From the NCBI GenBank assembly GCA_045837725.1, contig JBEWZL010000278.1, positions 186,001-250,000 of the forward strand: a stretch of DNA of 64,000 bases, written 5' to 3'. The stretch comes from Vermamoeba vermiformis (Eukaryota). The notes under the pieces were generated by a model. That model was not told where the DNA came from. It was given only the letters and a program-made list of their open reading frames with translations, and ran no database searches. The number at the start of each line of letters is the position of its first letter. The first letter of the stretch is position 1. The position numbers were made by a program, and so were the translations under genes. This document shows positions 15,300 to 54,974 of the stretch, one piece after another.

Positions 15300-17065
15300 T
15301 TATTTCGACTCGGCATTCTTTCCTCGTACAAGATGTAAATAATAGTTTAAGAAATAAAACTGATTGGTCGAAGTTGGCTCGCGAATCGGATGCAGGGATC
15401 TGAAAGGATTCAATTGATGACTCAGCGTTACTTTGCCTCCCAACTTTTCAATGTACTTCTGATCTAATTCAGCTTCTTCTGCATTATAAGATGTCACTAA
15501 CAGCGGTACATTATGTTGCAAGATCCATTCCAGCGCTGGTTTCCACGAATTCTCTTTGTTCATTAATTCCGCTTCATGAATGCCAGAATTGAATGCGCAC
15601 ACGAGATCAGGCTTCTTAAATTCATTCTTATCCGTCGGCTGGTTCTCCGTATTATTATTAGTATTATTCGTGTTGTTTTCGTTCTTTGGGTTGCCGTAGT
15701 TAAGTACGTATTCTTCGTAGAGCATTGGGTACGACAAGAATGTCATCTTTTTGCCAACTTTTTCGCATTTATCGCACGTGTTAGCGTCAGGCATGTGAGT
15801 CTCGGACAGTTCAGGGCCGACCATAACAACATTCAATTGTTTCAGGTTGGGCAGTACATGCAATAACTCTTCAAAGACAGTCACTGTCAATTGTTCATTC
15901 GTTATTGCAGCGCCAACAATGTGAATAGTCAGTTCTGTAGCTTCAGCCAAGTTGACGGTGTTGAACTGAGCACGTATCTGTCAGTACCTTCACGATAATA
16001 CGGAGGGCTTATTTACCTTTTCAAGCGCATATAATGCTGTGACTGGCATTGAAAGCGGCGAGCTAATTATAGAAACACCGACTTGACTCATATCAGGTGC
16101 CTCTCGTGCGTCAAAAAAGCTCTTCCAATCACCTGTACACACGTGTCAGATGCAGCGCTCCCGTTATTACCCTGTATTTAATTACCTGCTAATGGCGTAT
16201 ATTTTTCAGCAATAAAATCACTCGTCCAAACAAACGGCACTTTCATCTCGTAGATTGCTTTTTCAATTTCAACGGTCAAGTTGTACACGGGACACAGCTC
16301 TTCGTGGAGTTGCTTGACCTCACTGATCACAATGTAAGATTGTAGTCTTATTCAATAATGGTACTTACGCCTTGTTAACGTGCTTTGGACAGAATGACAC
16401 GATGTGACACTTGGGACAGTTGACCAGATCTTTGCGGGAATGGCAGACATTGCACGACTATGATAGTATTATGTTAATATGAAGCTTATAATGCTAAAAA
16501 TATAGTATTTACGTCTTGAAATATGACCACATTCGTTTCTTCATAAGTAAGTGGTCGTTGCAGATCTTCGCCAATAGCAGCAATGCAGAGCCGTTGATAA
16601 TCTAACCAAGTTGATTCATCGAATGGCTGGTCAATAGGGATTTTTTGCATATCAGAGTTATTGCGTAGATTCTCGAGGGCTTTGCACAGCAGTGTTGAGA
16701 AGAAAATAAGAAAAATTAATTATCGGAGCATTTTTAAAAATTGTAATTATAATATATTATCCATCTGTATACATATAACCGTCTTATATAGTATTTGATT
16801 TATTTAATTAAAAATTATGAATGAAGAAAAAATATTTGTGGACACTTATCTTTGTGGTTATTGAAGTCTTCTCGTTGATGTTCGGCGCTACAATACCACA
16901 CACCCTTGCATCTACTACAGCGCATCGCAGAGCCGCCCTATTAAAGGTCAATACGTCGATCTTGCCAAACGTTCCAAGATCAGTATTCAAACTCACTTTT
17001 GCGGTAGACTCGCTTTTGCAGATGCGACATACTCGCGGCATAAATCGTGCTGATAGTCCAAACAT
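15300..17065 (-). CDS. MYND zinc-finger / MSS51-like (ZMYND15-type) protein
   Basis: Spliced MYND fingers (CRIC..RCSRCKGVWYCSAEHQREDFNNHKDKC and a second finger with CPKCHIVSFC). MSS51 C-terminal motifs LTIHIVGA, VVMVGPEL, KPDLVCAFNSG, LVTSY, NPFRS. Confidence 0.85.
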
Positions 17066-23872: not shown

Positions 23873-26402
23873 ATGATTCGCCAATTAATTTTAACAATTG
23901 CGATCTGCTTTGGCATCGTCTACGGCCAAACTTTTTCGGGTAAGCCTTGTCGGATCACGACGATCGTTGCAGAATACTGATTCTTATATTTAAGCCGTCT
24001 TCCACAACAATTTCCCTCCAAACAGCATGCCTATTGGCGTCAGATCCAGAACTTATGGTGTCAGTCTGACGCAAAATCCAATTTCAGACTCGCCAGTTAT
24101 AGTTAACTTAGCCTCAACTGGCCTACAATTCTCGCCATCTTCATTTACATTCACTTCGACCTCGTCTGTCGTTCAGTCATTCACCGTAACGGTAAGTTTT
24201 GGATCTGGCGAATTGAATTAAATTAATTTATTTAATTACGAATGTAGGCAACGGCGCTTGGTTATCAACAGATTAATGTAACAGGCGGCGTTACTGCACA
24301 AAACTTCTATGTTTCTGTAACTCAGCGTAAGTTAGTGTATAACTGCCGCTGAAAAGATCCGCCTTAATTAATGCTTATTTTAGGCGTTATTTATGCTCAA
24401 GAACAGACTACATATAATGCCGTTGGCCAATGGACTAACTTTGTTTCATTCGCAATGACTTACGACGATCCCAGTTCAGATTTGGCCATCCACACGAATC
24501 TGACTAGCTCAGACACGCCTCGCATCTCTCTAAGCGGCATTGATACGCAACTCTCTAACTCTAAGCGCGGCGGTTATTTATCTGTTCGCAGCGACGTCGA
24601 GGGCACTTCTCTTTTGAAATTCACTCCCATCGGATCCCGCGCCGATTGGTACCAGATCTCAAGCACTATCGTTGAGCTCGATATCGCCCAAAGTAAGTCA
24701 TTAATATAGAATAATAATAACTCCGACCCACAAAATCAAATTACGCACCATTATTCTCAAACGATTTCATATTTTTGTTCCGCGTGTCATAATGTCACTT
24801 GAGATTAAACTAATTCTTTTCTTTTATTTCCTTATTAGGAAGTATCTCCGTCCCTTCCAACCTCAACGCATTCAAAGTCGGAGAGCGTGTCTCATATCAA
24901 ATTCTATTGTCCCAGCCTTCAACTGGCTCGCTGTCAATCACGCCAGCTGGATCTGGCTTGTTTTTCGAGCCCTCCACTGTGACCATTGCTGCTGGCTCAC
25001 TTTCAGCCACTGTCACTGTCTACGCTAAATATGCCTCTGATTCACCAGTATCCATCTCTTACACTGTGAGCGGATCGGATGCAGTCATGTACGACTTCAG
25101 CGGCTTCACTACTATTTCAAGAATTAATTCGCGTAAGTATAGGACTACATTATTATAATAAGACTTATCTTAATGAGCCGAAACTAATTTTTTTGGTCTA
25201 TTTTTAGCTCAAGTCACGTGCGTTCCAGTTAAAACTTCTACCGGGTACAAACAACCCGTGCACATCAACTGCCGCGCCGACGACTTTACTGACTCAGTGA
25301 CTATCACTCCGACAGGTGAAGGCATGAGCTTCTCACCGCAATCAGTCACTTTCTCTGCTGGTTGCACATCCGCAACTTTTGAAGTGACTCCTTCAGTCGT
25401 GGGACAAATTCCGATCTATTATGACATTAGCGGTGATAATTTCTACGCTACTTTTAGTCCTGCCAGCAAGATTCATACTATTAATGTTAGCAAACGTAAG
25501 TCAACGCAAAATTTTTTGGTTGTTAGGTGGCGTCTTGACCTAACATTTCCTTATTTAGGCATTGTCACCATCACCGGTCCTTCAGTGAATGTTGCAGGAG
25601 GCGAGAACTACGTGATGGTTTCACTGTACGGCAGCGATACTTCAACGTTGTATCCGCCCTACAGCTCGTTGATTGTCACTCCTTGCACGCAGTCCTCGGG
25701 CTTGGTCGCATTCGAGCCTTCATCACTCACCTTCGACAACACGCAATCAGTTGGTGCTATTAGTGTCAGACCTCTTGTGCCTGGTGTCACACAAGTCGAT
25801 TTTGGGTTTACTTTGAGCGGCGATGATGCTTATGGATTCCAAATTTTACCAGCCTATAGCACTCAGATCGTTAACAGTAAGTACTAATATTTGATACTAT
25901 TATTGAAATAGTATAGATCTAATATGAATTTGTTTAGATGTATTCGATGTCAAGTACTACACGGACGAAGAACATGTCAAGCAATACCAACGTCTTCCCG
26001 CCCTCAACACGACCGAAGCATTCAATATTTCGGTGTTTAAGTACGATAATATTATTAAACTACCCACCTATCGCGAGTCAATTTTATTAAGCTACCACAC
26101 TCGAGTCCTAATATTTGTTTTAACTCAGCATCGTTGGTAACGTCACTTTGACGCCTGAAAGTGCCGTCGTCACATTCACTCCTAGCTCGTACACTTTCAC
26201 TCGCACCGACACTACAGCCAGCTTTAATATCACTGGCATGCGAAGTGGAACATCGTACGTGACCTTCAAGCTCACTGGCGACTCTGCTCGTTTGTTCACC
26301 GTGCCCAAGCCTTCGTTGCAAGTCACCGTACTCGGATCTAGTGCCGCTGTTACACTTGCCAGCACATTGTTGATCTTGTTGTGTGCATTCATTGCACTGT
26401 AA
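23873..26402 (+). CDS. Secreted, probably GPI-anchored surface protein with repeated beta-sandwich (Ig/Calx-beta-like) modules
   Basis: Signal peptide MIRQLILTIAICFGIVYGQ. Recurrent F.PSS.TF....F.V....G...Y..SG.DA units. Hydrophobic C-terminus LASTLLILLCAFIAL*. Multiple GT-AG introns. Confidence 0.75.
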
Positions 26403-26489
26403 TGTATATAAAAATTAAAGACTAGATATCTAATTAGCACCACAATTGATTCGGTCAATGTTCAAGAAAGCGTCTGGCAACACTTGAAT

Positions 26490-29469
26490 TTATTTTCGGT
26501 ACGGTTGTTTTGGCGGATTTGACTTGGCCAATGCCGGCGAGGACGGTGAAGGTTTGAACTCGTCGGAAGTAGATTTGGGCTTGACCATTGTTGGCGAGGA
26601 CTTGGCCAGTGCGTGATCGCCAAATGTTGCTCGTCGAGGTGAAGTTTGTGAGCCTGTACTGGCATTCTCGTTTGAACTGGCCTTGGCAAGTGGTATCTTT
26701 GGCAATGGTTTTTTGGGCTTCTTTGAAGCCTCATCTTTCTCAGGCGTTGTTGTTTTGATCGTGCTTGCCCCGCTCTTATCCACAAATGTTGCACTCAAAG
26801 TACTGTTGCCGCTCTTATCTACAAATGTGCCCGTCATTGTCTTGTTGAAAGTGTTGCCGCCGCTCTTGTCCACGAAAGTGCCCGCGTTCATAGTCTTATT
26901 CATCGTGTTATTGCTTCTCTTGTCAACAAAAGTACCCGTGTTCATAGTACTGCCAGCGTTCTTATCGACAAAAGTGCCCGTGCTGAGTGTCTTGTTCGTG
27001 ACAAATGTGCCGCTGTTCATCGTCTTGTTCACCGTGTTGTTCGTGCTTTTATCGACAAAAGTGCTCGAGGCCATTGTGCCCGCGTTGCTCCTATCAACAA
27101 ATGTACTCGTGGAGTCGTTGAAGTACATCATACTTTGACTAGTGTTGACCAAGTTCATGTCGTTCGCGCCCGCGTTGATTGTTTTGACGTTACTCTGGCC
27201 CTTTGTGTTTGCAGGCAATGCTTTTGACGGCAATGTTTTGGAGCCTGCATCATTTGGCATCGAATTGCTGATCGTTAATTTCTGCGAAAGTTGTTAGGGT
27301 CACATTGTTGACACGTGAAAAATATTGAGTGACACGTGTCAAAGTGTCAAACTTACCCTCATTTTATCACGCATCACAAGTTGATATTCTGTTAACAGCG
27401 GTGCTAACTCTTCTTGCGCGTTCAATTGAGCACCTTGCAGGACAAATGGGTGACTCAACAGCTCGACAGCTGTCAATCGACCACTCGTCTCTTTGGACAA
27501 ACATTTCTTCAAGAAATCTGCAAATTCGGGACTCCACCGCTCAGGATTTTTTAACTTAGGTGCGTCCTGATTCATGGTTAGATTATTAATATAAGACGAA
27601 TAGAGGCTACCTCGTACTTGTTTTGGAATGGTCATCATCGCTTGAAGTGGATGTGTTCCGTGCATCGGTGGAGCTCGCTCGGCCAATTCTATCGCAGTAA
27701 TTCCCAGGGCCCATATGTCACTTTTTTCGCTGTACTGTCGTTTGCTGCAAATTTCCTGCAATAACATTAGTTCATGAATGATCGGATAAAAAGTGAAATT
27801 TCACGTACTGGTGACATCCAATAGGGCGTGCCAACAAGAGTATCGTTCTTGCCCATGACTGCCTCCATTGTCGTGGCAACACCAAAATCGGCTATTTTGA
27901 CCTCGCCCTTGGAATTCATCAGAATATTTGCAGCTTTAATATCCCGATGCAGAATTCTTTTTGCGTGAAGGTAAGCTAATCCGAGCAAGGACTGGTATAA
28001 TACAAGTGATATTTGTGACTCTGCTAGTGAGATATTTAACGTTGTTATAAGATCTTTCGTGGATCCTGACTCGCAATAGTCCATCAAAATCTGTTCATGA
28101 AAAATGACACGTGTCAATTGCAATTCTTCATGCGGTACAAATAATAGCGCGACTTACCCATAGATGCTTATCTTTAGCAATAGCGCCATAATAATTTACA
28201 ATGTGATTGTGCCGGCACTTTTTCAAAATGTCAATCTCGTCCTGCACTTCCTTGCGTGCTGCCGCGTTGTCAATTTCAACAATTTTGATGGCCAAGATGA
28301 CATTGGCTTCACGATGCCGAGCTTTGTACACGACACCATAAGCGCTAATGATAGTGTTAATATGGCATATTAAATAAGTCCCGAAACCTTACCCTTGACC
28401 GAGTTTTTCGATCAATTCAAAAATCTTCAGCGGATCTTGTCCAGTCCAATTAAAATCTATGTCAACGTGAATATTATGGCTCAGATTATATGGCGCACTA
28501 ACTACGAGCGACTCTTCTTCATTAGGAATTTCCATCGAATTTGCTGGCGATGCTTTTTTCAGCAAATTATCGGTGCTCTGAATTTTAATTAGAATATAAG
28601 TAGTAATCCATTTAATAATTATTTAAATAATTATTAATTGAACTTACTTTTGTCTTCATGTCTTTGACTGCAATAAAATTCTTTAGGGTCTCTTCAAAAA
28701 TCAACGACACGTTTTGACCTGGCAAAAAGAGAACGAGTAAGAATTAATCTTGTACATAAATATTCCTTTTTTGGTAATTTTACCAGTCTTCGCTGACACA
28801 GGAAAGAATGGCCAGCCAAATAATTTTGACACTTTTTGGCCCTCTTGAACTCCTTGCTCATTATTCTCATCCGCTGTTATAATTCATTAATAAATGTCAA
28901 ATATAATGTGCTGGCATACCGCAATTTCCCGCCAAAACAGCTACGAGGCTGGATCCGCCGCGTACTGACATAATTTCATCTTTTATTTGAACCAGGGCCT
29001 CAAGTGTCTTGCGCGATGTGACCGAATAGACGAATATAAACGCGTCTGCCCATTTATACCACTAAAATAAATTAGGTTGATTTATTTTGTATTTTCTTAC
29101 CTTTGTGTGGAGAAAATTGTTCTTGGGATCTCCGCCTGTATCCTATTCAATTGAAATTAATATTCTATGACGCAGCAATATTTAATTTTATTACCAATAT
29201 GGTCACATTGAATGTCTGGCCTCGGATATCAAATGATTTTTGGTGGCGATCCTCTATTTAAATTTTTAATTTTAATAACCGAATTATTTAGCAGTAATTT
29301 TGGTAAAATTACATACCTATCGTTGGGTAAGGCGAAATAAAAAATGTTTCGTGGCAAAGCTGGCTAACTAAAGCAGTTTTACCGACACCTGATACGCCAA
29401 CCAATGCCTGTCAGATCAGTTAATTAAAAACCTTATTAAATATCTTTATCTTACTATTTTAACTTCCAT
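26490..29469 (-). CDS. Ras-like small GTPase - CRIB/PBD - STE20-family Ser/Thr kinase fusion with repetitive Thr-rich tail
   Basis: In-phase splicing gives [53 protein letters not shown], then [14 protein letters not shown] (CRIB), then [37 protein letters not shown]. Confidence 0.85.
26770..27110 (-). repeat. Degenerate coding repeat, 8 copies of (S/G/A)TFV(DK) interleaved with (N/K/S/G)TM
   Basis: Visible in the translation of ORF 26490-27260. Confidence 0.85.
27330..27341. promoter_or_regulatory. Intronic palindrome TGACACGTGTCA (copy 2)
   Basis: Exact match inside a kinase-gene intron, flanked by extra TGACAC/GTGTCA half-sites. Confidence 0.5.
28105..28116. promoter_or_regulatory. Intronic palindrome TGACACGTGTCA (copy 3)
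   Basis: Exact match inside a kinase-gene intron. Confidence 0.5.
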
Positions 29470-29581
29470 GAGGTATTGTATCTCATATCATTTTGCTAGT
29501 ATTGAATCACAAATGACGAAAATGGTTCATTAATGCAGTAATAACAATTCTCCGATTACGCACGCAAATTACAACTTTTAT

Positions 29582-31849
29582 TTACATTTTTTTATCCTTC
29601 AAATACTCGGTCAATGTTTTAGGCTCAATAGCGAGCCGAGGATTACTCTGGATCTTCTTGACAGCCCGAACAATATTTTCTAAGTGATTGTACACTAAGT
29701 AAGCGAGCGCATCCACGACGTCTTTTTGCACCGAAATATTATAATTTTGAAAATCGCAGCTAGATTTCAGCCATTCAGTGAATTTCTTCCGTGGCCTGCC
29801 AAAACTAACTTTGCAACAATTCTCGAAGAAAATGTACTGTGGCTGCGTCATATTCCTCGAAAATTCTTCTCGTTCAGCTAATCTACTTAATTTTTCTTCT
29901 TTAATCTTCTCTATTGAACAGTCTTCGATGGCTTGATCCGCACAACTCGTCATAGATTTCAACTGATCTATTGACGGTGCTACCCAATCAGGTCGCAGCT
30001 GGACGTCATTATCTTCATGATTCTCTTCGTTATTGTTATTTTTGGCTCCTTCGTTGTTATTCTCTTCAATTTCCATCGCTTGTTGTTTCGCGTCTTTTGT
30101 TGCCTTTTTGTTATCACCTTCATCGACTTTATCTGACTCTGCCCAATAGGCTTCTATATCCGCTCCAGTATCCTATAATATCACTCATTAATATCGCTTG
30201 TAAAGTGACGTACTGGATCCAGATCTCGATCCGGGCTGGTTTAACAAAAAAGATTGTTCTACTTACATCCATATGCTGCGCAAATGCTTTACTTGTTTTC
30301 AAAAATGATAGGAAGTGTTCTACTAATCGAATCGACTTCATATCTGGAAACAGTGCTCGTGCAAAGTGATCCAATTTCACGCCTACTTTTCTGACCGAAG
30401 AACTGCCTTCTTTCACTGTCGAATCCTCTGACTCCTCTTCAACACTTTAAGTAATGTTAATAACGACATTATCGATGATGTAGATTGACTTACTCTCCGT
30501 GAGACTTGTCTTTATGCGCTTCGTGCGATAATTTTTGCAGCAAATTCTGACCAAATTTCGTCGCTTCAGCCTCGAGCAATTTCGATGTCTCGACACTAAG
30601 AATAAAATTAATATTATTATGCAAATATAAAACTATATTAAAGTAAGCGTCATTGACTTACTTTGGCTGAGCAACTTCGCCCCATGAGTGCATCATGCTT
30701 TTAATTTCCTCTTCGTACGTAGGTTTTGACTTTCTAATTGGCACTAATTCCCTAAAATAATTAATATTAATAAAAATGACACTAAATAAATGTTTCACGT
30801 ACTTATTGACAATCATATTGTTGGCATTAACTTGATGAGGACTCTCAATTAACATCCTCTGAATGGCTATTTTCATGTACTGATCGCGCGGTAACATTCC
30901 TTGCAGCTCTTGCAAAGTGTACGACGCGTATTTGGACAGCAGATCTGACTCTTGATCTGTAATCGTACTCGTGTTAGCAAAACTCCTATAGTTACAACAG
31001 ACGCCATAATACCTTGTACTGAAGAATTTAATAGTGCTGATTTTTGTTTTGACTTGCTTTTCTTCGTCGTTGTTGCTGGAGATCCATCAGTCTTTTTTGC
31101 ACGAGGTTTTTTAGGCTTAGGAGTCTCCTCTCCTTCCTCACTTTCCGATTTTTTGGTCTTTTTAGGCGTGGCTTTCTTCTTTGCTGGCTTTTTACCGTTA
31201 GTTTCTTCGGTGTTCGCGACTTCTGGTTGTTGTGAGGTTTGATCCAGTTGTGATTCGGCTGTACTTGCTTGTTGTTGCGTGTTTTGTTCTTCTTCTGTAT
31301 TTTTCTTCGTAGATTTAGTGGTTCTTTTCTTCTTTGGTGGTTCTACATCCGGATCGAAGTCATCCGCCTGGATCTACCGCCAAAAAATTATTTATGATTC
31401 AGATTTTGTACATTATGATTTAAATATATCAAGTGGTAAATTAATGGCCTTATTGTAATTTAACAAATTTACCTTGCGTTTCCTCGATCGTGGTTTCGGT
31501 GTTTCTTCTTCGTCTTTCATTTCCTCGTCCTAACAATAGCAATTAATACATAATAGTAACAAGTGTTATCTCTTACAAGTATAGCGTCTTCTGTATAACG
31601 CACGGGCTTGGCACGGGCCCTTCGAGTTCTTATTCTACGACAGATCACAGTTAGCCTCACTCCACAACATTGACCACTACTTACTCCTCCATAACAGCGT
31701 ATTATACGAGGCTGTTTAGCGACCCGTCGGCTGATGTGGTTGCTTCTTAGCTGGTTACGCTTCTTTCTTTTTCCTTGCGTGTTCGTGTGAACAACAACGC
31801 TACCCGCAACTTGAACGACGCTAATCTCATTGCACCCCTGAGTTAGCAT
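29582..31849 (-). CDS. SPT3: Spt3/SUPT3H-like SAGA histone-fold protein with long K/E-rich N-terminal extension
   Basis: YEEEIKSMMHSWGEVAQP; RLAEREEFSRNMTQPQYIFFENCCKVSF..KKFTEWL; DVVDALAYLVYNHLENIV. Start codon uncertain. Confidence 0.75.
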
Positions 31850-39598: not shown

Positions 39599-42344
39599 TT
39601 AATCTGGTGCTTTCTGCTTATCGTCAGAAGCTTTCGATAAACGAGCAACTCTGAGGCAAGCCAACTCGTTTCTAGCGGCATTGGAGTGGTTGTACACAGT
39701 CTCATTGAACGCCTGTGTAGCATCCTTGCCCAAATACGCTTGAATCAACTTGCGACCACCAGGGTGTTGGTCGATAAATTCAGTGACGTCGTGAATAACG
39801 TCATCGATCAAAATCAACGACGCGCCTTCAGCGACACGGGACTGATACTGTTGCATGCTCATTTCAGGGAGGTCATCGAAAGAGCGGCCCCAATTGAACT
39901 TGGACTTCTCTTGATCGATCTTCTTTTGGATCATGCTGATGCGACCCTTGGCAAAGAGATCTTTCTTGAATTTCTTCAAGTTGTAGGTCAGACCAACCTT
40001 GCTCAAAGTGTAGATGAGCCACTTTCCTATTCATCAATCCATATTAGTACAAGTCCGTGATATATATTGGGTGACACGTGTCATGTCAAAAAATAAGTGG
40101 AAGTTGAACGTACCAGGGTCATAGTGGTACCACAAGAGGCCATTACGATAGTCATAAGGGAACTCGTGGTGGAAGTTGTGGAATCCTTCACCCCAAGTCC
40201 ACAGTGACACGAAGATGCTGTCACGCGGGGTACGTTGATCGCTGTAAGTAGCGTCACCCCAGTAGTGGGCCAAACTGTTGATGAAGAAGGTGAACTGTTG
40301 GATGAACACGGCCTTAGTGAAGCCAGCAATGAGCAAGCCACCGAGCCAGTCACCCCAGCCAAAGCCAGCGATCAACATGGGCATGATCAAGCCGAAGAAG
40401 ATGGCAAGAGGTGCGTAGTAGCGGTGTTGGAATTGCAACATAGGATCAGCCTCCAAGTCACTAATGTCAGTCTTGACGATCTCGTGGAAGTCAGGGCCCC
40501 AAGCATCACGCTTCCAGAACATCCAGCCAATGTGCGAGTGGAAGAAACCTTGCTTGGCATTGTACGGATCTTTCTTCGTGTCCGTGAATCGGTGGTGAAT
40601 TCTGTGATCGTGGCACCAGCTGAAGCACGAGCCTTCGAAGGTCCAGGTAGCCATCACCAAGAGGGGCAACTTGACGATCGGATGGGCATCGTACGAGCGA
40701 TGAGACCACAGTCTGTGGTAGCCAGAAGTGATGCCAACGCCACCGACGTAGAACATGATGAAGGCTAGGATGGCAGTCTTGAGCGGAATGTCAATGAAGA
40801 ACGGTGCAATGATGCCGCAGATGGTCGAAACAACGAGCCAAATAGTGACGGTCCAATCGAGTTTAGTGAACAGAGTGCTGATGCTGAGACCAGTGCTGTC
40901 ATCAGCATACAAGTACTTCCACAACGAGGTCTCTTGGATGCGCTAGAGATTTAAATTAATAAAGATTTCCTTTTATGGAATTACTAAGAATATCGTAATT
41001 ATTACCTTGTCGAGTTTCTTTTGCATCAAAGCATAAGCCTTCTTGATGTTGTAGCTAGGAATGCTTTGAATGTTGTCAGAGGCAGCAACAGCCATGTAGT
41101 TCAAGTTGTCAGACAAGAGCTCGACCCACTTGGGGAACTTGACTGTTGAGAATGAAAACTCGAGATCTTTCTTCGCGGAGTTAAAATCCTTTTGGAACTG
41201 TTCCTTAGCGTTCTCAAAATCCTTCTGCAACTGTTCCTTGGCGTTAGAAATGTGTTCTTTGTACTCATTGTAACGCTCTTCGGCGGCTTTAAGGATCGTA
41301 GCGTGAGGGAGCTGATGCGCTTTTTGGAACGAGCTGGCCCAGAAGTGATAGACGGCCAAAGGAATGAAATAGTACTTGAACAAGCCCCACCAGCCAAGGT
41401 TCATGGCCATCAAGGGGAAGAACAGGCAGACAAAGGCGTAGATCAAAACCATGTTGACTGCGGTTCGCTTGTTGAGATTCAGATGCGCGCTGACTTGAGC
41501 CTTAGCCCATTGCCATGAGGACGCAAAGAACCAGAAGGGTGATGACAGCAATCCTATATTAGCAAGAGAATAGTCGTTAGAATTGGTTGTTACACATGTT
41601 CCAAGATCTGGTCTCAAAGTGACTTGTGCAAGATTGAATCACATATCAACGGAATCGCATTAAATCCTTAGTATTATAGTAATAACGGTATTCATATAAT
41701 GCATTATTGCTTACTTGATTTGTTAAAGTATTGGCGCCAAGATTGGAAGGGAGTCATCAAGGGCAACAGACAGAGAGTTCCGACAATATCATTGACGGTA
41801 TTATTCTCGAAGAATGCATCATTGCTGCATGCATAGGCTACAGTAAGGAGCTAGTATAAGCAGCGTTAGCATTTTGAAGATTGAACGGATCTAATATTTG
41901 TGTTGACACTTTCGGGTTGCAAATTTAAATTGATTCAAAATATGCATTTACAATGCTAAAGCGCGAACAAGTATGTCATTTAATAATTAGATGGTATAAA
42001 ATTTTGATCCGATCAGATTGAAATCATGAAATTTTTTCATTATCATCAATCGACTTACGCCTGTAACCGAAGTGCCTAAGAACAACCAGCCAATGGGTAG
42101 AAGATACCACGGAGTATTTGCGATGATTACGACACCGAGCGTAACAAAGGACAGGATCTTGATCAACGACCAGATCGCCTTTGTGGTGCTTTTTTGGAAC
42201 ACCTATGACAGATAAAACATTAATATACCATTCATTGAATGAATTGAAGCAGAAGAGAATTAAACTAAACGATGGGAATCAATCATTTACCTCTCTTGGC
42301 ACGAGATCTGCCAATGGAGGCATAGGAGCCACAAGCGAGGCCAT
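39599..42344 (-). CDS. Delta-9 acyl-CoA desaturase with C-terminal cytochrome b5 and an N-terminal His-less delta-12-like domain
   Basis: Delta-9 His boxes YHRLWSH, HDHRIHH, GEGFHNFHH; cytochrome b5 HPGG. Upstream exons splice in phase and resemble an omega-6/delta-12 desaturase fold. Confidence 0.9.
40072..40083. promoter_or_regulatory. Intronic palindrome TGACACGTGTCA (copy 5)
   Basis: Exact match inside a desaturase intron. Confidence 0.5.
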
Positions 42345-42898
42345 GAGCTGTGTTTGTTCGTCAAATATGGATTGCTGAAAAGACTGCCGTGCACTGGACC
42401 GCCAAAAAAAGTTGCGACGGACCGCTCGTGGACGGAGATCCCCAGAGAGATTGACACGTGGTCCCGAAATAACTCATTCTCCGATCTGACTCCTCAACGG
42501 CCAACTAATTTACCAAAATCCACGAAAATTAGCCATTAAATTAACTCCTCTTTAGGGAAATGGCCGGTTCCTAAGGCACCGTTGAATGTTCCAAGTAAGT
42601 AAAGTGCACGGCCCGCCATATTATTTAATCGATGAAACAAGCCAAAATATAAGTCATTAATCGAGAAGTAGTGAATAACTAATTTTGTTGGCCATCCTTT
42701 CGTCCAGAAATTCACGAAAAAATGTTCTTCTCGCAGATGCACCAGTTCCTTATGCCATAATGCACAATGGCTTTCTCGACTTGCTGCAGGGTATTATTAA
42801 GGCTAAATATTAAATATTTTTGAAATTGCTTTGCTTTTTCTTGTGGTTGCACCATCGAGCTGATTATTTTTTTGCTGTTGTTCTGAAGAGCACAACTC

Positions 42899-43741
42899 AT
42901 GGCGGATCTTACACCAGAACAGCTCGAGCAACAAATTGCCGAGTTTGCAGAGCAATTAGCTAGTGTCGAATTTGCACTGCGAGCGGATCCGACGAACTCA
43001 GAATTATTGGATGCGAAAAAGAGTTTGGATGAAGTATTGAAAGAGCTCCACGACATTCAAGAATTAAGGAAAAAAATTGAAAAAAAAGAAACAACCACAA
43101 ATAACAATAATACAGCACCGTCCTCTGAAAAACTCAAAGCAGTTCAAGATGCAGCCGCGAGCAAAGGAATTTATGTTGGCATGCTTTGTGAGGCTCTTTA
43201 CAGCGGAGACAGCCAATGGTACAATGCACGCGTTACTGATATTAATGCTGATGGTGTTGTAGTTGTATTTGATGGCTATGGTAACGTGGAAACGATCGAT
43301 CCCAAGAAAGATTCAATCCGCGCACGTCAAGAAAAAGCTCCTCTTGCTGGCAAAAAACGAAAAGAGCCTGAAACATCATCTTCAGTAGCATTAGAACACA
43401 TTCCCAAGTCATTACAAATTCTACCAACAGATTCTGAAAAAGTTCGTCTGATGAAGAAAAAGAGGATCAAGCAACTCAAATCTAAGACTCGTTTCCAGCA
43501 ACTTGAAGAGGATACCACCAAGAAAAAATCTTCATGGCAAGACTTTTTGAATACAGCCAACAAGAAACAAAAGACGACGAGTACGATCGCGCCTAAAGAA
43601 AGCATTTTCCGCAGTCCCGACACTGTGGATGGACGCGTCGGAGTTGTTGGATCGGGCAAGGGCATGACTCCGAACCCTACGAGCAATATCAAGCCTGTCG
43701 TACCCAAAAACAAGACCACTGTCGATTTGCCCTTCAAGTAA
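42899..43741 (+). CDS. SMNDC1: Survival of motor neuron-related splicing factor 30 (SPF30/SMNDC1)
   Basis: QLASVEFALRADPTNSELL; Tudor domain CEALYSGDSQWYNA..VVFDGYGN; ESIFRSPDTVDGRVGVVGSGKGMT. Confidence 0.92.
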   Translation: MADLTPEQLEQQIAEFAEQLASVEFALRADPTNSELLDAKKSLDEVLKELHDIQELRKKIEKKETTTNNNNTAPSSEKLKAVQDAAASKGIYVGMLCEALYSGDSQWYNARVTDINADGVVVVFDGYGNVETIDPKKDSIRARQEKAPLAGKKRKEPETSSSVALEHIPKSLQILPTDSEKVRLMKKKRIKQLKSKTRFQQLEEDTTKKKSSWQDFLNTANKKQKTTSTIAPKESIFRSPDTVDGRVGVVGSGKGMTPNPTSNIKPVVPKNKTTVDLPFK

Positions 43742-44436: not shown

Positions 44437-48195
<3,759 letters not shown>

Positions 48196-48212: not shown

Positions 48213-49526
48213 TTATTTCGTCGCGTTGATCATATTCAAAATATCTGCAGGGATCTCTGCTCGCTGCACGCCACTCACTTCAAGCAAAAAATCGAGCAGT
48301 GCAGGTGTCTTGACACACGGCTTGAAACACTGGTAATTGCGTGCTCTGATGTTGACCCCTGGGCACAACAACAGCTTCTTGATCACCTCGCTGTAGCTCT
48401 GTGGATTCTTCCAGTAATTCGTTACTGCTCGAACCAAGGCTTCGTTATCGCACGAGGCTGGATCTACTCGCGGATCTGCAAGCAACACATCCAGCACCGC
48501 TAAGCATCCACTGCCCGCTGCAAAGTGAATAGCGTGCTCTTTGCCTTGCGCAGGATGTACTCTGTTGTCAGCCAGCAACAGTGCCACGACTTCAGCGTGA
48601 CCATTGCGTGCTGCCTCGTTGATGGGTGCGTTGTTCTTGCAGGCCGGATCTACCCGCGAATCAGCGAGGAGTAACTTGACTAGCGCGACATTGCCGTGCT
48701 GCGCTGCGACTCTAATGGGCAAATTGTCGACTGTGCTCGGCAACACACGAGCATCTTTGAGCAGCACTTTCACCACATCCAAGCGACCATGGTACGAAGC
48801 AGTTCGAATAGCCAATTGTCTGCCCACACTAGGGTCCTTGCCGCGGTCAATTAAGAATTGCATAATGTCTGCTCGTTGCACATCAGCGAGCACTTCGTCG
48901 TTGAGTTCTGCATCCAGTCGCGGATCGAGTTCAGCAATTGCCTTGACTAATTCGAGACTAGTGCCAGTCACAGCCAGTTTAAATATAGCAAAGTCGCAGT
49001 CTAGTGGCACGAAGCGTGGACAGGCGTATAATAGACGCACAATATCGACTGACTGGATCTTCACGGCCTCGCGGAATGCAAGGTGGTCGCTGAACGACAC
49101 ATCCACTCGCTCGTCCTCCAACAAGAGCTTGACGACGTCTGTGTGGCCATTGCGACAGGCATAAATAAGGGGGTCTTGCGAGGGCACTGAAGGATCGGTT
49201 TTCTTGTGTTTTAAAAGAAGTTCAACAATCGGAGCACATCCATCCGCACTGGCGTAACGAATAGCCCATTGTTGCCAAGTTGAAGGGTCGACTCTAGTAT
49301 CTTGCAGTAGTCTATCCACCCACTTGACATTACGTTGCGTAATTACTCGACGTAGACCTTTGCACGCTTGAGCTGCTGGATTGATGCGTTCGTCTTCGAG
49401 TAAATGTGTTTCCGCAATCTTGTTACAACTCCTCGATATATACAACCAATTTAATGGTATGATGGGTATTATGTGCCGTTCCCAAATCTCTTTTGGAAGA
49501 GAAGCAAATGGATTTTCGGAAGACAT
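48213..49526 (-). CDS. Intronless ankyrin-repeat protein with F-box-like N-terminus
   Basis: NPFASLPKEIWERHII followed by about 9 repeats of AI..A...G...VV.LLL.D.RVDP. Confidence 0.88.
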   Translation of the reverse strand: MSSENPFASLPKEIWERHIIPIIPLNWLYISRSCNKIAETHLLEDERINPAAQACKGLRRVITQRNVKWVDRLLQDTRVDPSTWQQWAIRYASADGCAPIVELLLKHKKTDPSVPSQDPLIYACRNGHTDVVKLLLEDERVDVSFSDHLAFREAVKIQSVDIVRLLYACPRFVPLDCDFAIFKLAVTGTSLELVKAIAELDPRLDAELNDEVLADVQRADIMQFLIDRGKDPSVGRQLAIRTASYHGRLDVVKVLLKDARVLPSTVDNLPIRVAAQHGNVALVKLLLADSRVDPACKNNAPINEAARNGHAEVVALLLADNRVHPAQGKEHAIHFAAGSGCLAVLDVLLADPRVDPASCDNEALVRAVTNYWKNPQSYSEVIKKLLLCPGVNIRARNYQCFKPCVKTPALLDFLLEVSGVQRAEIPADILNMINATK

Positions 49527-50750
49527 TTTCTAAAGTAATCCCAATAATTAATTTACACGTAATATTACAAAAAGAATTTAAAGCCTATATAAATAATATT
49601 GTAGAGATTGAAATTTTAATTATTATAAGAAGCTTTGCGTTGAAAAAGTTGGGAAAGTGTCGGAAGGTACTTACAGGTCAATACAAAGCAATATTTACAA
49701 TAGTGAGGTTAAAGTACAATGTAAATTAGCTCAAGTCACAAATACATCGTGTTTAGACTTGTGGTCGTCAATTACATTGGGTAAATTTCAAATATTCTGC
49801 TTGGAACTGCACACGAAAAAGAGAACTATGAATGGGCAAATATTTTATTAATCAACTATGAGTATACTCCTACTACGTCCAATAAGGGGGACTGAGAAAC
49901 AATACTATTCTCTTGGGTGATTGAGACTGTCTCGTCTCTAAATAAAAAAGGCGTTAGTATTAATGTTATAATGCTCTTGCTAATTAATGATAGCATCTTC
50001 TCGGTATAAGTTGAATAAGGGCTTACTGATAATGAAAGTTACTGTTCTTACTGATGATGATCTCCAGCTAGCGCAGAACGAGTTAAGAAAACGATGGCAA
50101 CTCTGACGCAGATCCCCCACATTTGAAGTTTGGCCAGCAAATATGCACCGATAATAATAACCCATGATTGACAACGCAACATCCTTTTTATTAATAAGTG
50201 AAATATACAAAGCGAGTTCTTACGAGGCTGAAACGCGCATCCAAACAGCAGCCAAAAATCATCCTATTTAACAAATAATAGTGATAGATTGGACTATAGG
50301 CCACTGTTATCATCGACAAAAGCATGTTGTTGGGTATTGTCTTCAATATTCATATTCGCTGATTAAAATGTTGGGCTATATGTAATACGTAGAGGTCATA
50401 TAGTGTCGAAGTGATATATATACGTGAGGGCTAGTAAGATGGTGAGTCGCAAGCCAAAAAGTAGCAATCGGGTAGATATAGGAGCTAGTGTACAACTAGG
50501 TGGGTGAAGGGCAAAGTGGTGGATGGGGTTGGATGTGGTCACTCAACTCGCGAGCAATGAGCTAGCACAACGCTCTTTAAGGCCAATGTATATGACACGA
50601 GGCGGGCACGTGACTTGAACACTATTCGCAGCGAAAATTGCCGATTTCTCGAACAAAGGCGAAAGGTCCAAGTCACGCACTCGCACGTCAACATCACCGA
50701 CCTAAAAGAACGCGTGCTAGACACAGCGACGAGTGAGCGCGTGAATGGAT

Positions 50751-52808: not shown

Positions 52809-54974
52809 ATGGATGGAGTCAAACGAAACTAAAAACAACCAGAACAACTGGAGAAATTCTATTAACGTAAAATGGAACAAGTACGTATACAATATTCATT
52901 TCAGTCGATCATGATTAAAAATTAATTGTCTTACGCACGCGTAGAGTGCGACAAGATTCATCCAAGATTCTCGCGTCGACAGGCAAGCTATTGCAAATTA
53001 AAGATCAGCCTTCAGCAGATAAATGGCAGTTGTATCGGAAAATAATAGAACAAGACCCACCTCCGACGGCAATACCGCGAGATAAAACACTCAAAAACTT
53101 GATTCGTTATGTGGGCATTCCTCAAGACATGCGAGCGAAGGTAACGACTCAAAATAATATAATATCGTCAAATTCCGGCATATCTTAAAATTTTCGTCGT
53201 TTGGCATTTTTTGGCTGCAGTTTTCCACCGCTGGATCGCAATCCACTGGGAGCATGCAATTAAAATTTAAATTTAATTTGGAATCCTTCCGTATACGGCT
53301 ATATGCCATTTACGCTTCTTTGCTCGAATTTGACAGGCTTCTATTGGCAGATGTGGACACTTCTGACACGTGCAGCTCAAAATTATTGCGATAATAAGCT
53401 GGAATACTCAGAAATATTGCGCAATCAAATGGAGAAGAGCAACGAGTCCATAGCACAAATAGAGAAGGATCTGCATCGCACTATGCCTCGCAATGAATTT
53501 TGGAACAAGGACAAAGATATTCCTCGACTGCGCAGCGTGTTGGTAGCATACTCATGGATTAATCCATATGTAAGTTTGGTAATAGGAATTTATTTTGCCG
53601 AAAATGGACGCTTTAGCCGAGAGATCTGCCTATTTCGGAAATTTGATGTTAGTTCCTTGAATACGCGTTGACACTAACAATTGAATTTGGCGAGATCAAA
53701 CGCCTTTATACACAAGAAAATTAATGCCTTGTCCGCCTAAGGAGAATAATCTAACGAAGTTGCAATTTAGGTCGGTTACTGCCAAGCCATGAATTTCGTT
53801 TGTGGAATTCTGCTGATCGTTATGAAAGACGAGATGGCATTTTGGATGATGCGGTCGATCGTCGAGGACATATTGCCAGTCGATTACTACGCGTCAGATC
53901 TGCTAGGGATCAAAGTAAGTAGTTGTTGCTTAAATTAGCTCCAGACACGCGCCGCAGTAATAAATCGCCTAATCGAATTCATTACTTCAAGGTCGATACG
54001 GAGGTCATCAAGGCCCTTCTAGAGCAGAAGCTGCCGAGAATAGCAGAACACTTGACAAAACTGGATGTTGTCTTGTTGCCAATCATATCCGAGTGGTTCT
54101 TGACGCTGTTCGTCAACTGCTTGCCATATGAGGTATGCTAGGCATTCGATTCAAGATTGCATCTAAAGTCAGTCTTGCCGTCATTTGGATCGAGAGCATA
54201 AATCTATTTTTGTCTCTTTGCCACGAATTAACCTACGATTTTTGATAGAACGCCTTGAGATTTTTGGATAGCTTCTTCTCGGAAGGCAGCAAGATATTGT
54301 TTCGGTTTGCCCTCGCGCTTTTCAAGTACAACGAGCAGAAGATCCTCGAGCTTCAAAGTTTTGAAGAGGCATTCTCATTCGTCAAAGACATGCCAGCGCA
54401 ACTTACCGATGCCCAAATGATGAAAGAAGTCATGGATCTGAGCTTTGATGGCTTATGGCTCGGAAGAATGTCGCTCGTAACGATTTCAGAACTTCGGAAT
54501 TTCTTCGAAAGCAAGCTCATCTCAGAGAAGCAAAAGGCTCATCTCAAGGCCCTCAAACGCGAGAATAGGAAGGCTATATTACTTGCCGAGAATGCCCCGC
54601 CACCGCCCGCGAACAAACATCTACATTATGTGTCCTCGGATCATCGCATGAGCTCAGATTTGACTGAGCTTGGCTATCTACTGCCCTCGAAGCACACTAG
54701 AAACGCTTTTGTTGCACGACCCTTCCGCGTCAATTTGATGGCGGAGATTAAGGTTATCGAAGACTACGTTACGCCTCCAGTCAACTTTGTATATAATGGT
54801 GCTACGAGCTTATCGCCGCCTGTTTCTCCGCGATCGCTTAAGCCTTCGAATACCAACACGCCCTCTCACACGCCACCAGCCTCACCGAAGCGGGCTGCAT
54901 CCGGTCATGTTTGGCAGTTGGTGAAGGTTCCATCGAGTTCGAAGCTGCAACGAAGCCAGGATATGAACAGCTGA
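52809..54974 (+). CDS. TBC-domain Rab GTPase-activating protein
   Basis: GIPQDMRAKMW, QIEKDLHRT (Arg finger), VGYCQAMNF (Gln finger), EWFLTLF, FLDSFFSEGSKILFRFAL. Confidence 0.9.

Follow-up and report, generated by a model that had tools for sequence, protein, structure and literature searches.

A gene on the minus strand of Vermamoeba vermiformis contig JBEWZL010000278.1 almost certainly encodes, as one polypeptide, a G domain of the Ras subfamily, an acidic disordered linker, a CRIB-like motif, a STE20 kinase of the MST/Hippo-like kind, and a disordered tail rich in Thr-Phe and Thr-Met dipeptides (T-F/T-M). The gene lies within positions 186,001-250,000 of the contig, a stretch of 64,000 nt that was analysed as a whole and is referred to here as the window; coordinates are window-based, as they were in the initial annotation. 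That annotation, made from the DNA letters, described a Ras-like GTPase fused to a CRIB motif and a STE20 kinase, and suggested that such a protein could be either a self-contained GTPase-effector switch or an integrator of an internal Ras-type and an external Rac-type input. We favour the second of these, for the reasons given below.

Splicing the minus-strand letters of 26000-30200 by coordinate joins 13 exons into a single open frame of 767 aa (Table 1). The seven small 5′ exons proposed in the initial annotation have the coordinates it assigned to them, splice in phase through GT-AG introns of 39-65 nt, and yield a GTPase fold of 170 residues with neither a stop codon nor a CAAX box. The phase-0 intron that it drew next is likewise present in the sequence, leads into the CRIB-like motif and then an intact kinase, and is spliced out in three relatives, P0001, P0124 and P0126. 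Two further ATGs lie within 21 nt upstream of the start codon.

These relatives carry the evidence for a single chain. P0001 (750 aa) was found among longer proteins with kinase exon 10 as the query (97% identical in that exon) and is the sole carrier of the Ras family PF00071 among the 120 matches listed; the spliced model aligns with it end to end at 88% identity (677 of 768 columns), with all 12 junctions colinear, an agreement well beyond chance. P0124 (767 aa) and P0126 (750 aa), further full-length members of the 90%-identity cluster to which P0001 belongs, are 90% and 88% identical to the model, respectively, with no break at exon junctions. All three are uninterrupted open reading frames (ORFs) on environmental contigs, of 2268, 2388, and 4054 nt. 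The smallest of these contigs is too short to accommodate introns in addition to its 2253-nt ORF – the window gene with its introns occupies 2980 nt – and the contigs are therefore derived from spliced RNA. Because these three intron-free contigs carry the whole frame at 88-90% identity, we interpret the gene as encoding a single chain.

Other sequences illuminate the splicing itself. P0123, a member of the same cluster, and P0279, from a sister subfamily, are open from exon 1 to exon 5 and continue into intron 5 (window 28919-28874); both appear to be partly spliced transcripts that retain this intron. The phase-1 position of intron 5 is common to both subfamilies, though their G domains are only 39% identical. 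A metagenome scan gave three confirmed genomic loci out of 46 pattern matches. The genomic relative L001, which is 73% identical, extends from the last part of the G domain across the junction and over the kinase, and its junction intron (177-240, 64 nt) falls at the same codon boundary and in the same phase as window intron 7; the intron sequence is unrelated and the flanking exons are conserved.

These data bear directly on the possibility that two neighbouring genes have been wrongly joined, with the GTPase ending at a stop codon in a retained intron 7 and the kinase beginning at Met185. Retention of intron 7 would indeed bring a stop after 14 codons, there is an in-frame Met at residue 185, and the spacers between genes in the window are only ~110 nt; moreover, three RNA runs with the same species label contain only 2, 2, and 1 partial reads at the locus. 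However, the joined frame is present on three independent intron-free contigs, and the junction intron keeps its site and phase but not its sequence. Proteins P0131, P0277, and P0281 of the second subfamily share the joined layout without having a Met aligned to Met185, and the G domain continues into the linker and kinase with no CAAX box, other lipidation signal, or other typical small-GTPase C-terminus. We consider the mis-joining of two genes to be extremely improbable; its exclusion comes through the relatives and not directly, because no RNA reads of the source strain over the locus are usable. DNA run X1 gives short contigs at window 26641-29700 with many single-base differences and two small intron indels (at 27598 and 28721), and seems to represent a related strain or population, not the source assembly itself.

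An exhaustive HMMER search with residues 1-222 against 1.84 billion cluster representatives gave 15,220 matches at E<=0.001, and among the best 150 of these two hold a kinase domain by phmmer, P0131 (267.9 bits) and P0138 (39.5 bits). P0138, an incomplete model from Entrophospora, is a protein of another kind. P0131 (749 aa; Ras at residues 42-199, Pkinase at 283-532) has the same layout as the window protein at 39% G-domain and 51% kinase identity, and its cluster has six members, all from environmental contigs. A word-based search limited to proteins of 412-1313 aa gave P0001 and P0121 only; in P0121 (1135 aa) the Ras domain is followed by ~630 residues and then a kinase scoring 152.3 bits with the Tyr/Ser-Thr model versus 129.7 bits with Pkinase, which is a different architecture. 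Eight other long G-domain matches scanned with Pfam are Ras-PH-ArfGAP or Ras-RapGAP proteins (five), a Ras-WW protein (one), and Ras-only proteins (two); P0127 is a four-fold tandem-Ras protein. In the ESM Atlas (clusters of at least 50 members) the nearest large clusters are plain kinases, none with both Ras and Pkinase. On these comparisons the family has two diverged subfamilies, known – besides the window – from environmental sequence only.

The initial annotation did not recognise this architecture, and neither do the sources we searched: it was found in no paper by literature search, and in no named organism in the protein searches. A single-chain Ras-STE20/MST protein is undescribed in the literature found, to which subscription papers and kinome supplements could still add one; the Stentor kinome preprint (10.1101/168187) has no occurrence of ‘Ras’ or ‘GTPase’, and none of five terms looked for occurs in a review of CRIB in protozoa (PMC8847673). 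It thus appears to be undescribed.

The N-terminal domain is, by sequence and by model, a member of the Ras subfamily and neither Rho-type nor Roc-type. Residues 5-160 of P0001 match Pfam Ras with E 9.5e-29 and 100.5 bits against a cut-off of 21.6, P0124 and P0126 do likewise, and window exon 5 by itself matches with E 2.9e-4 and 20.9 bits. The best solved sequence matches of residues 1-222 are KRas and HRas (~82 bits), and the best 60 are all of the K/H-Ras type. An AlphaFold2 model of these residues, built with 72 relatives, has a predicted local distance difference test score (pLDDT) of 89-98 across residues 1-170, and its best fold matches in the listed top 50 are RRAS2, H/K/N-Ras, and Rap1, with a TM-score of ~0.92 (target-normalised) and ~30% identity. 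The modelled order of strand 110-115, helix 122-135, strand 139-141, and helix 150-177 corresponds to beta5-alpha4-beta6-alpha5 with no Rho insert helix, and the Roc profile scores P0001 at 41.5 bits, well below the Ras score. There is also no Pfam match to COR on P0001 at E<=1, and – with a STE20/MST-like kinase following – the protein departs from the Roc-COR-TKL arrangement of the familiar GTPase-kinase fusions, as the initial annotation had implied.

Landmark residues of the G domain were counted in alignment A3 – one of the separate domain alignments A3, A4, and A5 – which contains six family sequences and 70 single-domain Ras-like relatives. The column of Ras Gly12 has Ser in all five of the family rows that cover it versus Gly in 49/70 of the other Ras-like proteins, that of Gln61 has Asp in 6/6 family rows versus Gln in 45/70 and Asp in 2/70 of the others, and that of Lys117 has Cys or Phe in 6/6 (Cys in the window protein) versus Lys in 65/70. 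The family retains K16, T35, D57, G60, D119, and S145, and has the P-loop GxxxxGK[ST], DxxG, and SAK motifs; the P-loop, switch-I Thr, DxxG, and SAK columns are also conserved in 66-70 of the 70 relatives. The residues that hold Mg-GTP therefore survive and those that drive hydrolysis are replaced, such that the domain should bind nucleotide and hydrolyse it poorly. With Asp in the Gln61 column, a RasGAP whose action depends on Gln61 should have no effect on it. Identity between the window protein and P0001 is 93% in the G domain, 95% in the kinase, 82% in the linker, 96% in the CRIB-like block, and 79% in the tail, and the G domain is under selection. Both subfamilies conserve a switch-I core, PT[IS]EDRH, and, following switch II, a family-specific WYxWAxAF block.

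The kinase belongs to the STE20 group and is intact, as initially annotated, although the comparison with PAK-type kinases does not hold. Residues 223-476 of P0001 match Pkinase with E 2.5e-71, P0124 and P0126 behave alike, and the best solved matches are STK4/STK3 (MST1/2) at 266-272 bits (271 for MST1/2 in the comparison with PAK), followed by MST3 (STK24) at 240 bits and by TNIK, LOK, SLK, and HPK1 at no more than 234 bits; PAK is absent among the best 60. In exon 10 it is 52-55% identical to YSK/MST-type kinases versus 43-49% to kinases with a PBD, and both the lysine of the AIK motif and the GTPYWMSPE motif are retained. From these sequence features we read it as an active MST/Hippo-like kinase of the GCK type, closest to MST1/2 and not to PAK. 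A SARAH domain was sought with Pfam and not matched on P0001 (E<=1) or on the window tail (E<=10); the C-terminus of P0131 looks helical by eye, and it too has no Pfam match to SARAH. In nematode models from the kinase search (Toxocara and Syphacia; the P0002-P0004 group, of which P0002 is from Ascaris) the stretch AANVLL...ADFGVA occurs twice in tandem; the Toxocara and Syphacia models may merge alternative exons, probably inflating their scores (48-52% identity, E 1e-28 to 1e-30).

Between the two domains lies the CRIB-like motif, for which the core described in the initial annotation stands and the full PBD does not. Pfam PF00786 matches exon 8 alone with E 0.0064; the score of 17.2 bits is under the 21.3-bit cut-off, and the match covers profile positions 2-18 of 59, which is a 16-residue core only. 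Of the three Pfam families expected from the initial annotation, Ras and Pkinase are thus recognised on P0001, and PBD stays below its cut-off. A custom CRIB hidden Markov model (HMM), built from segments of 10 PBD-kinases (the 10 of 21 PBD-flagged proteins that match a regular expression) and run on 357 proteins, places all 11 held-out PBD proteins at 29.6-60.9 bits and then, at 21.2 bits (E 3.2e-6), the window protein and three close relatives; the best unrelated protein reaches 15.0 bits, and the sister subfamily overlaps it at 14.4-15.9 bits.

The textbook consensus of the CRIB core is ISxPxxFxHxxHVG, of which the window motif keeps the S, the P, both H, and the V. The Asp at the consensus Gly position is no objection, because environmental PBD kinases – which carry VSSP[FY].L.H.IHVD – also include the identical HNIHVD. 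The motif begins 34 residues before the glycine loop, versus 100-160 in 10 PBD kinases, and this spacing leaves no room for a PAK-type autoinhibitory switch domain; it lies 25 residues after the G domain and 13 before the kinase. P0131 retains a related [IV]S.P[YF]N[LV]....HVD block with EEES in front of it. Our verdict, judged from sequence, is that the subfamily of the window protein probably has a genuine CRIB-type core, in the form of a bare linear motif and not of a full PBD.

CRIB motifs are known to bind GTPases of the Rho family (Cdc42/Rac), which raises the question of whether this one docks on the Ras-type domain next to it. In the AlphaFold2 model of residues 1-222, residues 181-222 have pLDDT values of 47-57 and form no strand or other secondary structure; in the full-length model, residues 170-210 fall below 50 and confidence climbs from about residue 211, where the chain meets the kinase N-lobe. 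For the CRIB-like segment a pLDDT below 50 is reported for both models, so it is modelled as disordered with or without the kinase. A complex prediction for the G domain (1-172) and the CRIB-kinase segment (176-490) with GTP and Mg, run without controls or family alignments, gave scores of 0.06 and 0.14 versus a mark of 0.34 and speaks neither for nor against contact. The AlphaFold2 models predict no GTPase-CRIB contact of the kind for which AlphaFold had been proposed in the initial annotation, and the behaviour of the motif fits that of a free linear motif.

The first option of the initial annotation was a self-contained switch, in which the GTP form of the Ras-type domain would bind the adjacent CRIB-like motif, in its own or a partner chain, and directly gate the kinase. 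The position of the motif between the two domains speaks for this arrangement, as does its standing as the best-conserved block of the linker; the HVD block with its preceding EEES persists in the distant P0131, and the conserved PT[IS]EDRH and WYxWAxAF segments could mark a conserved partner surface. However, the G domain is of the Ras subfamily without the insert helix, and not of the Rho family that CRIB motifs bind, the motif is disordered in both AlphaFold2 models, and P0131 lacks the first CRIB histidine. The self-contained switch has gained no support from these analyses, nor have they refuted it, and we regard it as distinctly unlikely. Very unlikely, in our estimate, is the evolutionary form of this idea, in which a Ras-subfamily G domain would have evolved a CRIB-type motif as its cis effector, and the nucleotide state of a hydrolysis-crippled Ras would gate a Hippo-type kinase, making a one-protein Ras-to-Hippo pathway that bypasses RASSF and SARAH. 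If true, the protein would be a natural ‘Rosetta stone’ fusion for an ancient module running from a GTPase through a STE20 kinase to Mob1. The reading that we favour remains an internal Ras-type input combined with an external Rac-type one.

The 287-residue tail has no relevant Pfam match at E<=10 and is predicted to be disordered, with pLDDT values of 24-41. It contains 17 T[MF] dipeptides versus 3.4 ± 1.6 in shuffled sequences, and none of 5000 shuffles reaches 17. Tandem Repeats Finder detects almost no repeat in the DNA of the tail and the TFVDK units differ at third codon positions; the repeats are conserved as peptide and not as DNA. The number of units varies among the relatives, with P0124 carrying one 17-residue unit more than P0001. 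According to Ni et al. 2015 (PMC4511216), the linker of MST2 has seven autophosphorylated TM motifs that redundantly recruit Mob1, and a pT-F motif is able to fill the same Mob1 site.

A mechanism can be proposed on the basis of these features. MST kinases are activated when they are brought together and cross-phosphorylate their activation loops, and in animals the SARAH domain and Ras-RASSF adaptors bring MST1/2 together. In the window protein the G domain would bind GTP and hydrolyse it poorly, acting as a built-in regulatory module that is mostly GTP-loaded or is controlled by exchange, and it could take over the job of SARAH and Ras-RASSF by localising or pairing kinase molecules; the paired kinases would then phosphorylate each other’s activation loops. 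The exposed CRIB-like motif would most likely take a second input in trans from a candidate GTPase of the Rac/Cdc42 type, and probably does not clamp the Ras-type domain of its own chain. The T-F/T-M tail would offer candidate autophosphorylated docking sites for a Mob1-type adaptor. Architecture and mechanism together form the best explanation that we have, to which we give slightly less than an even chance of being right as a whole; the mechanistic part is tentative and falls somewhat lower.

Several observations weigh against this explanation. The G4 motif NKxD is degenerate (NCAD in the window protein and TFAD in P0131, with the Asp alone kept throughout), and a G domain with such a G4 might bind no guanine nucleotide at all. 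The PBD is unmatched by Pfam on full-length P0001 (E<=1) and on P0131 (E<=10), and the motif of P0131, ISKPFNVQQYVHVD, has Gln at the first CRIB histidine and scores 14.4 bits with the custom HMM, not above the 15.0 bits of the best unrelated protein. The assignment of the kinase to MST is one of best-match scores and not of a tree. The tail of P0131 is without any TF or TM dipeptide, and the idea of a docking tail therefore applies at most to the subfamily of the window protein. The G domain of the full-length AlphaFold2 model is poor (block-mean pLDDT 28-70) because only six alignment rows covered it, so this model says little about interdomain contacts. What is said here of nucleotide binding, hydrolysis, dimerisation, and a GTPase partner is inference.

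Some of the same observations favour another explanation, namely that the G domain does not cycle between nucleotides and serves as a pseudo-GTPase or constitutive scaffold, and that the CRIB-like block is a structural or relic element of the linker without a GTPase partner. The protein would then be an MST-like kinase whose N-terminal targeting domain is decorative. Gly12, Gln61, and Lys117 are lost in every family row that covers them, P0131 has also lost Asn116, the PBD match is under the Pfam threshold, and the P0131 motif is at noise level. Retention of GxxxxGK[ST], Thr35, Asp57, Gly60, Asp119, and Ser145 across subfamilies that are 39% identical would nonetheless be hard to explain without nucleotide and Mg binding, and the motif of the window protein’s subfamily (subfamily A) agrees with the CRIB core of genuine PBD kinases even in its HNIHVD. 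We consider a pseudo-GTPase unlikely.

Several known systems share parts of this design. The closest kinases are MST1/2, which are also coupled to a Ras-type GTPase and have a disordered post-kinase region, the T-M/T-F-rich character of the window tail being like that of the MST2 linker. The Ras-type domain is fused N-terminally here, whereas its animal counterpart works in trans by way of an RA-domain adaptor; moreover, SARAH was not found here, a CRIB-like motif precedes the kinase, and the T[MF] tail is absent in the sister subfamily. PAK and Ste20 likewise have a CRIB-type core N-terminal to a STE20-group kinase, and the HNIHVD of the window protein makes its motif near-identical to those of environmental PBD kinases. 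The window protein differs from PAK in its MST-like kinase, partial PBD, 34-residue spacing, lack of an inhibitory switch domain, and possession of a Ras-type GTPase in cis. ROCO proteins (LRRK2, Dictyostelium Roco, DAPK1) combine a Ras-superfamily G domain, presumed to be the regulator, with a kinase in one chain. Here, in contrast, no COR was found, the Ras profile prevails over Roc, the kinase is STE20/MST and not TKL, and the G domain is followed after 50 residues by the kinase.

The nearest analogue in trans is the mitotic exit and septation initiation networks (MEN/SIN; Tem1/Spg1 to Cdc15/Cdc7 to Sid1 to Mob1-Dbf2/Sid2), in which a Ras-like GTPase is upstream of kinases that feed Mob1-NDR and in which Sid1 is a STE20-type kinase. 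These are separate proteins, whereas the G domain here is part of the kinase chain; its best matches are K/H/R-Ras. One preprint refers to MEN/SIN as a ‘GTPase-kinase signalling cascade’ (10.64898/2026.08.31.748335). Ras-like domains that are N-terminal in a larger protein and have no CAAX box are also found in embedded Ras-like proteins, of the AGAP/centaurin-gamma and Ras-RapGAP types. Among our matches, P0150, P0152, and P0194 are Ras-PH-ArfGAP proteins (P0150 and P0152 with ankyrin repeats in addition) and P0200 and P0272 are Ras-RapGAP proteins; in these the partner domain is a GAP, whereas here it is a kinase. Overall, the window protein would work most like an MST/Hippo kinase with a hard-wired Ras input and a CRIB core borrowed from the PAK world.

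The surroundings of the gene indicate a very compact genome, with the short intergenic spacers noted above. The upstream neighbour (window 29582-31400, minus strand) stops ~112 nt before the GTPase-kinase ATG, and no Pfam family matches either its last ORF piece (29582-30172) or a piece rich in Lys and Glu (30873-31373). Convergent with the kinase gene, the plus strand of 24000-26400 has ORF pieces with repeated modules of ~100 residues (...F.PSS.TF...G..SA.F.VT...-like) that resemble tandem beta-sandwich repeats; they have no convincing Pfam family, the one match being to Reo_sigmaC at E 0.0017, below the cut-off. A fragment of a leucyl-tRNA synthetase comprising the anticodon-binding domain is present at 47551-48195 on the plus strand, and the relatives found are all bacterial-type, mainly cyanobacterial, at 35-41% identity, which suggests that the gene is nuclear and its enzyme organellar, possibly of plastid origin, in which case the host may bear a plastid. 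Other features of the window are listed in Table 1.

Table 1. Coordinates of the GTPase-kinase gene, its parts, and other features of the window.
Feature	Position	Strand	Details or basis
Whole coding region	26490-29469	-	2304 nt in 13 exons (767 codons and a stop); 12 introns, all GT-AG, 39-75 nt long
Start ATG	29469-29467	-	Opens 15-nt exon 1
Stop TAA	26492-26490	-	Protein end ...KQPYRK
Exons 1-7, Ras-subfamily G domain, residues 1-170	28648-29469	-	Spliced frame, and Pfam on relative P0001
Exon 1	29469-29455	-	G-domain exon
Exon 2	29407-29317	-	G-domain exon
Exon 3	29253-29195	-	G-domain exon
Exon 4	29142-29101	-	G-domain exon
Exon 5	29061-28920	-	G-domain exon
Exon 6	28873-28784	-	G-domain exon
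Exon 7	28718-28648	-	G-domain exon
Intron 7, junction of G domain and linker-kinase, phase 0, 70 nt	28578-28647	-	GTAAGT...TTCAG
Exon 8: acidic linker (residues 171-195), CRIB-like core, kinase start to glycine loop	28393-28577	-	
CRIB-like core, residues 196-209	28461-28502	-	Sub-threshold PF00786 match and custom HMM
Protein kinase domain, residues 223-476, exons 8-12	27441-28421	-	Pkinase on P0001, 95% identical
Exon 9	28344-28158	-	Kinase exon
Exon 10	28090-27809	-	Kinase exon
Exon 11	27755-27618	-	Kinase exon
Exon 12	27566-27357	-	Kinase exon
Exon 13, region of the 287-residue tail, no Pfam family, predicted disordered	26490-27281	-	pLDDT 24-41
Degenerate Thr-Phe/Thr-Met repeats (TFVDK-like, KTMN-like), residues ~561-676	26768-27113	-	Dipeptide count versus shuffles
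MSS51 C-terminal domain	15300-15980	-	
Fatty-acid desaturase	40034-40942	-	
Tudor/SMN domain	42887-43741	+	
Ankyrin-repeat protein	48213-49529	-	
TBC RabGAP fragment	54249-54974	+	

In animals, Ras-type GTPases are connected to Hippo/MST kinases solely by way of adaptors, and in yeasts a separate Ras-like GTPase heads the related MEN/SIN cascade; that the two occur covalently joined in nature supports their direct functional coupling. With this protein, control of a STE20 kinase by a G domain in the absence of COR, SARAH, or the inhibitory domain of PAK can be studied in a compact system. Gly12 and Gln61 are the positions of Ras most often mutated in human cancer, and a wild-type protein with Ser at the first and Asp at the second may serve as a natural experiment on a ‘locked’ Ras. 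The family as a whole marks a lineage with unexplored signalling proteins.

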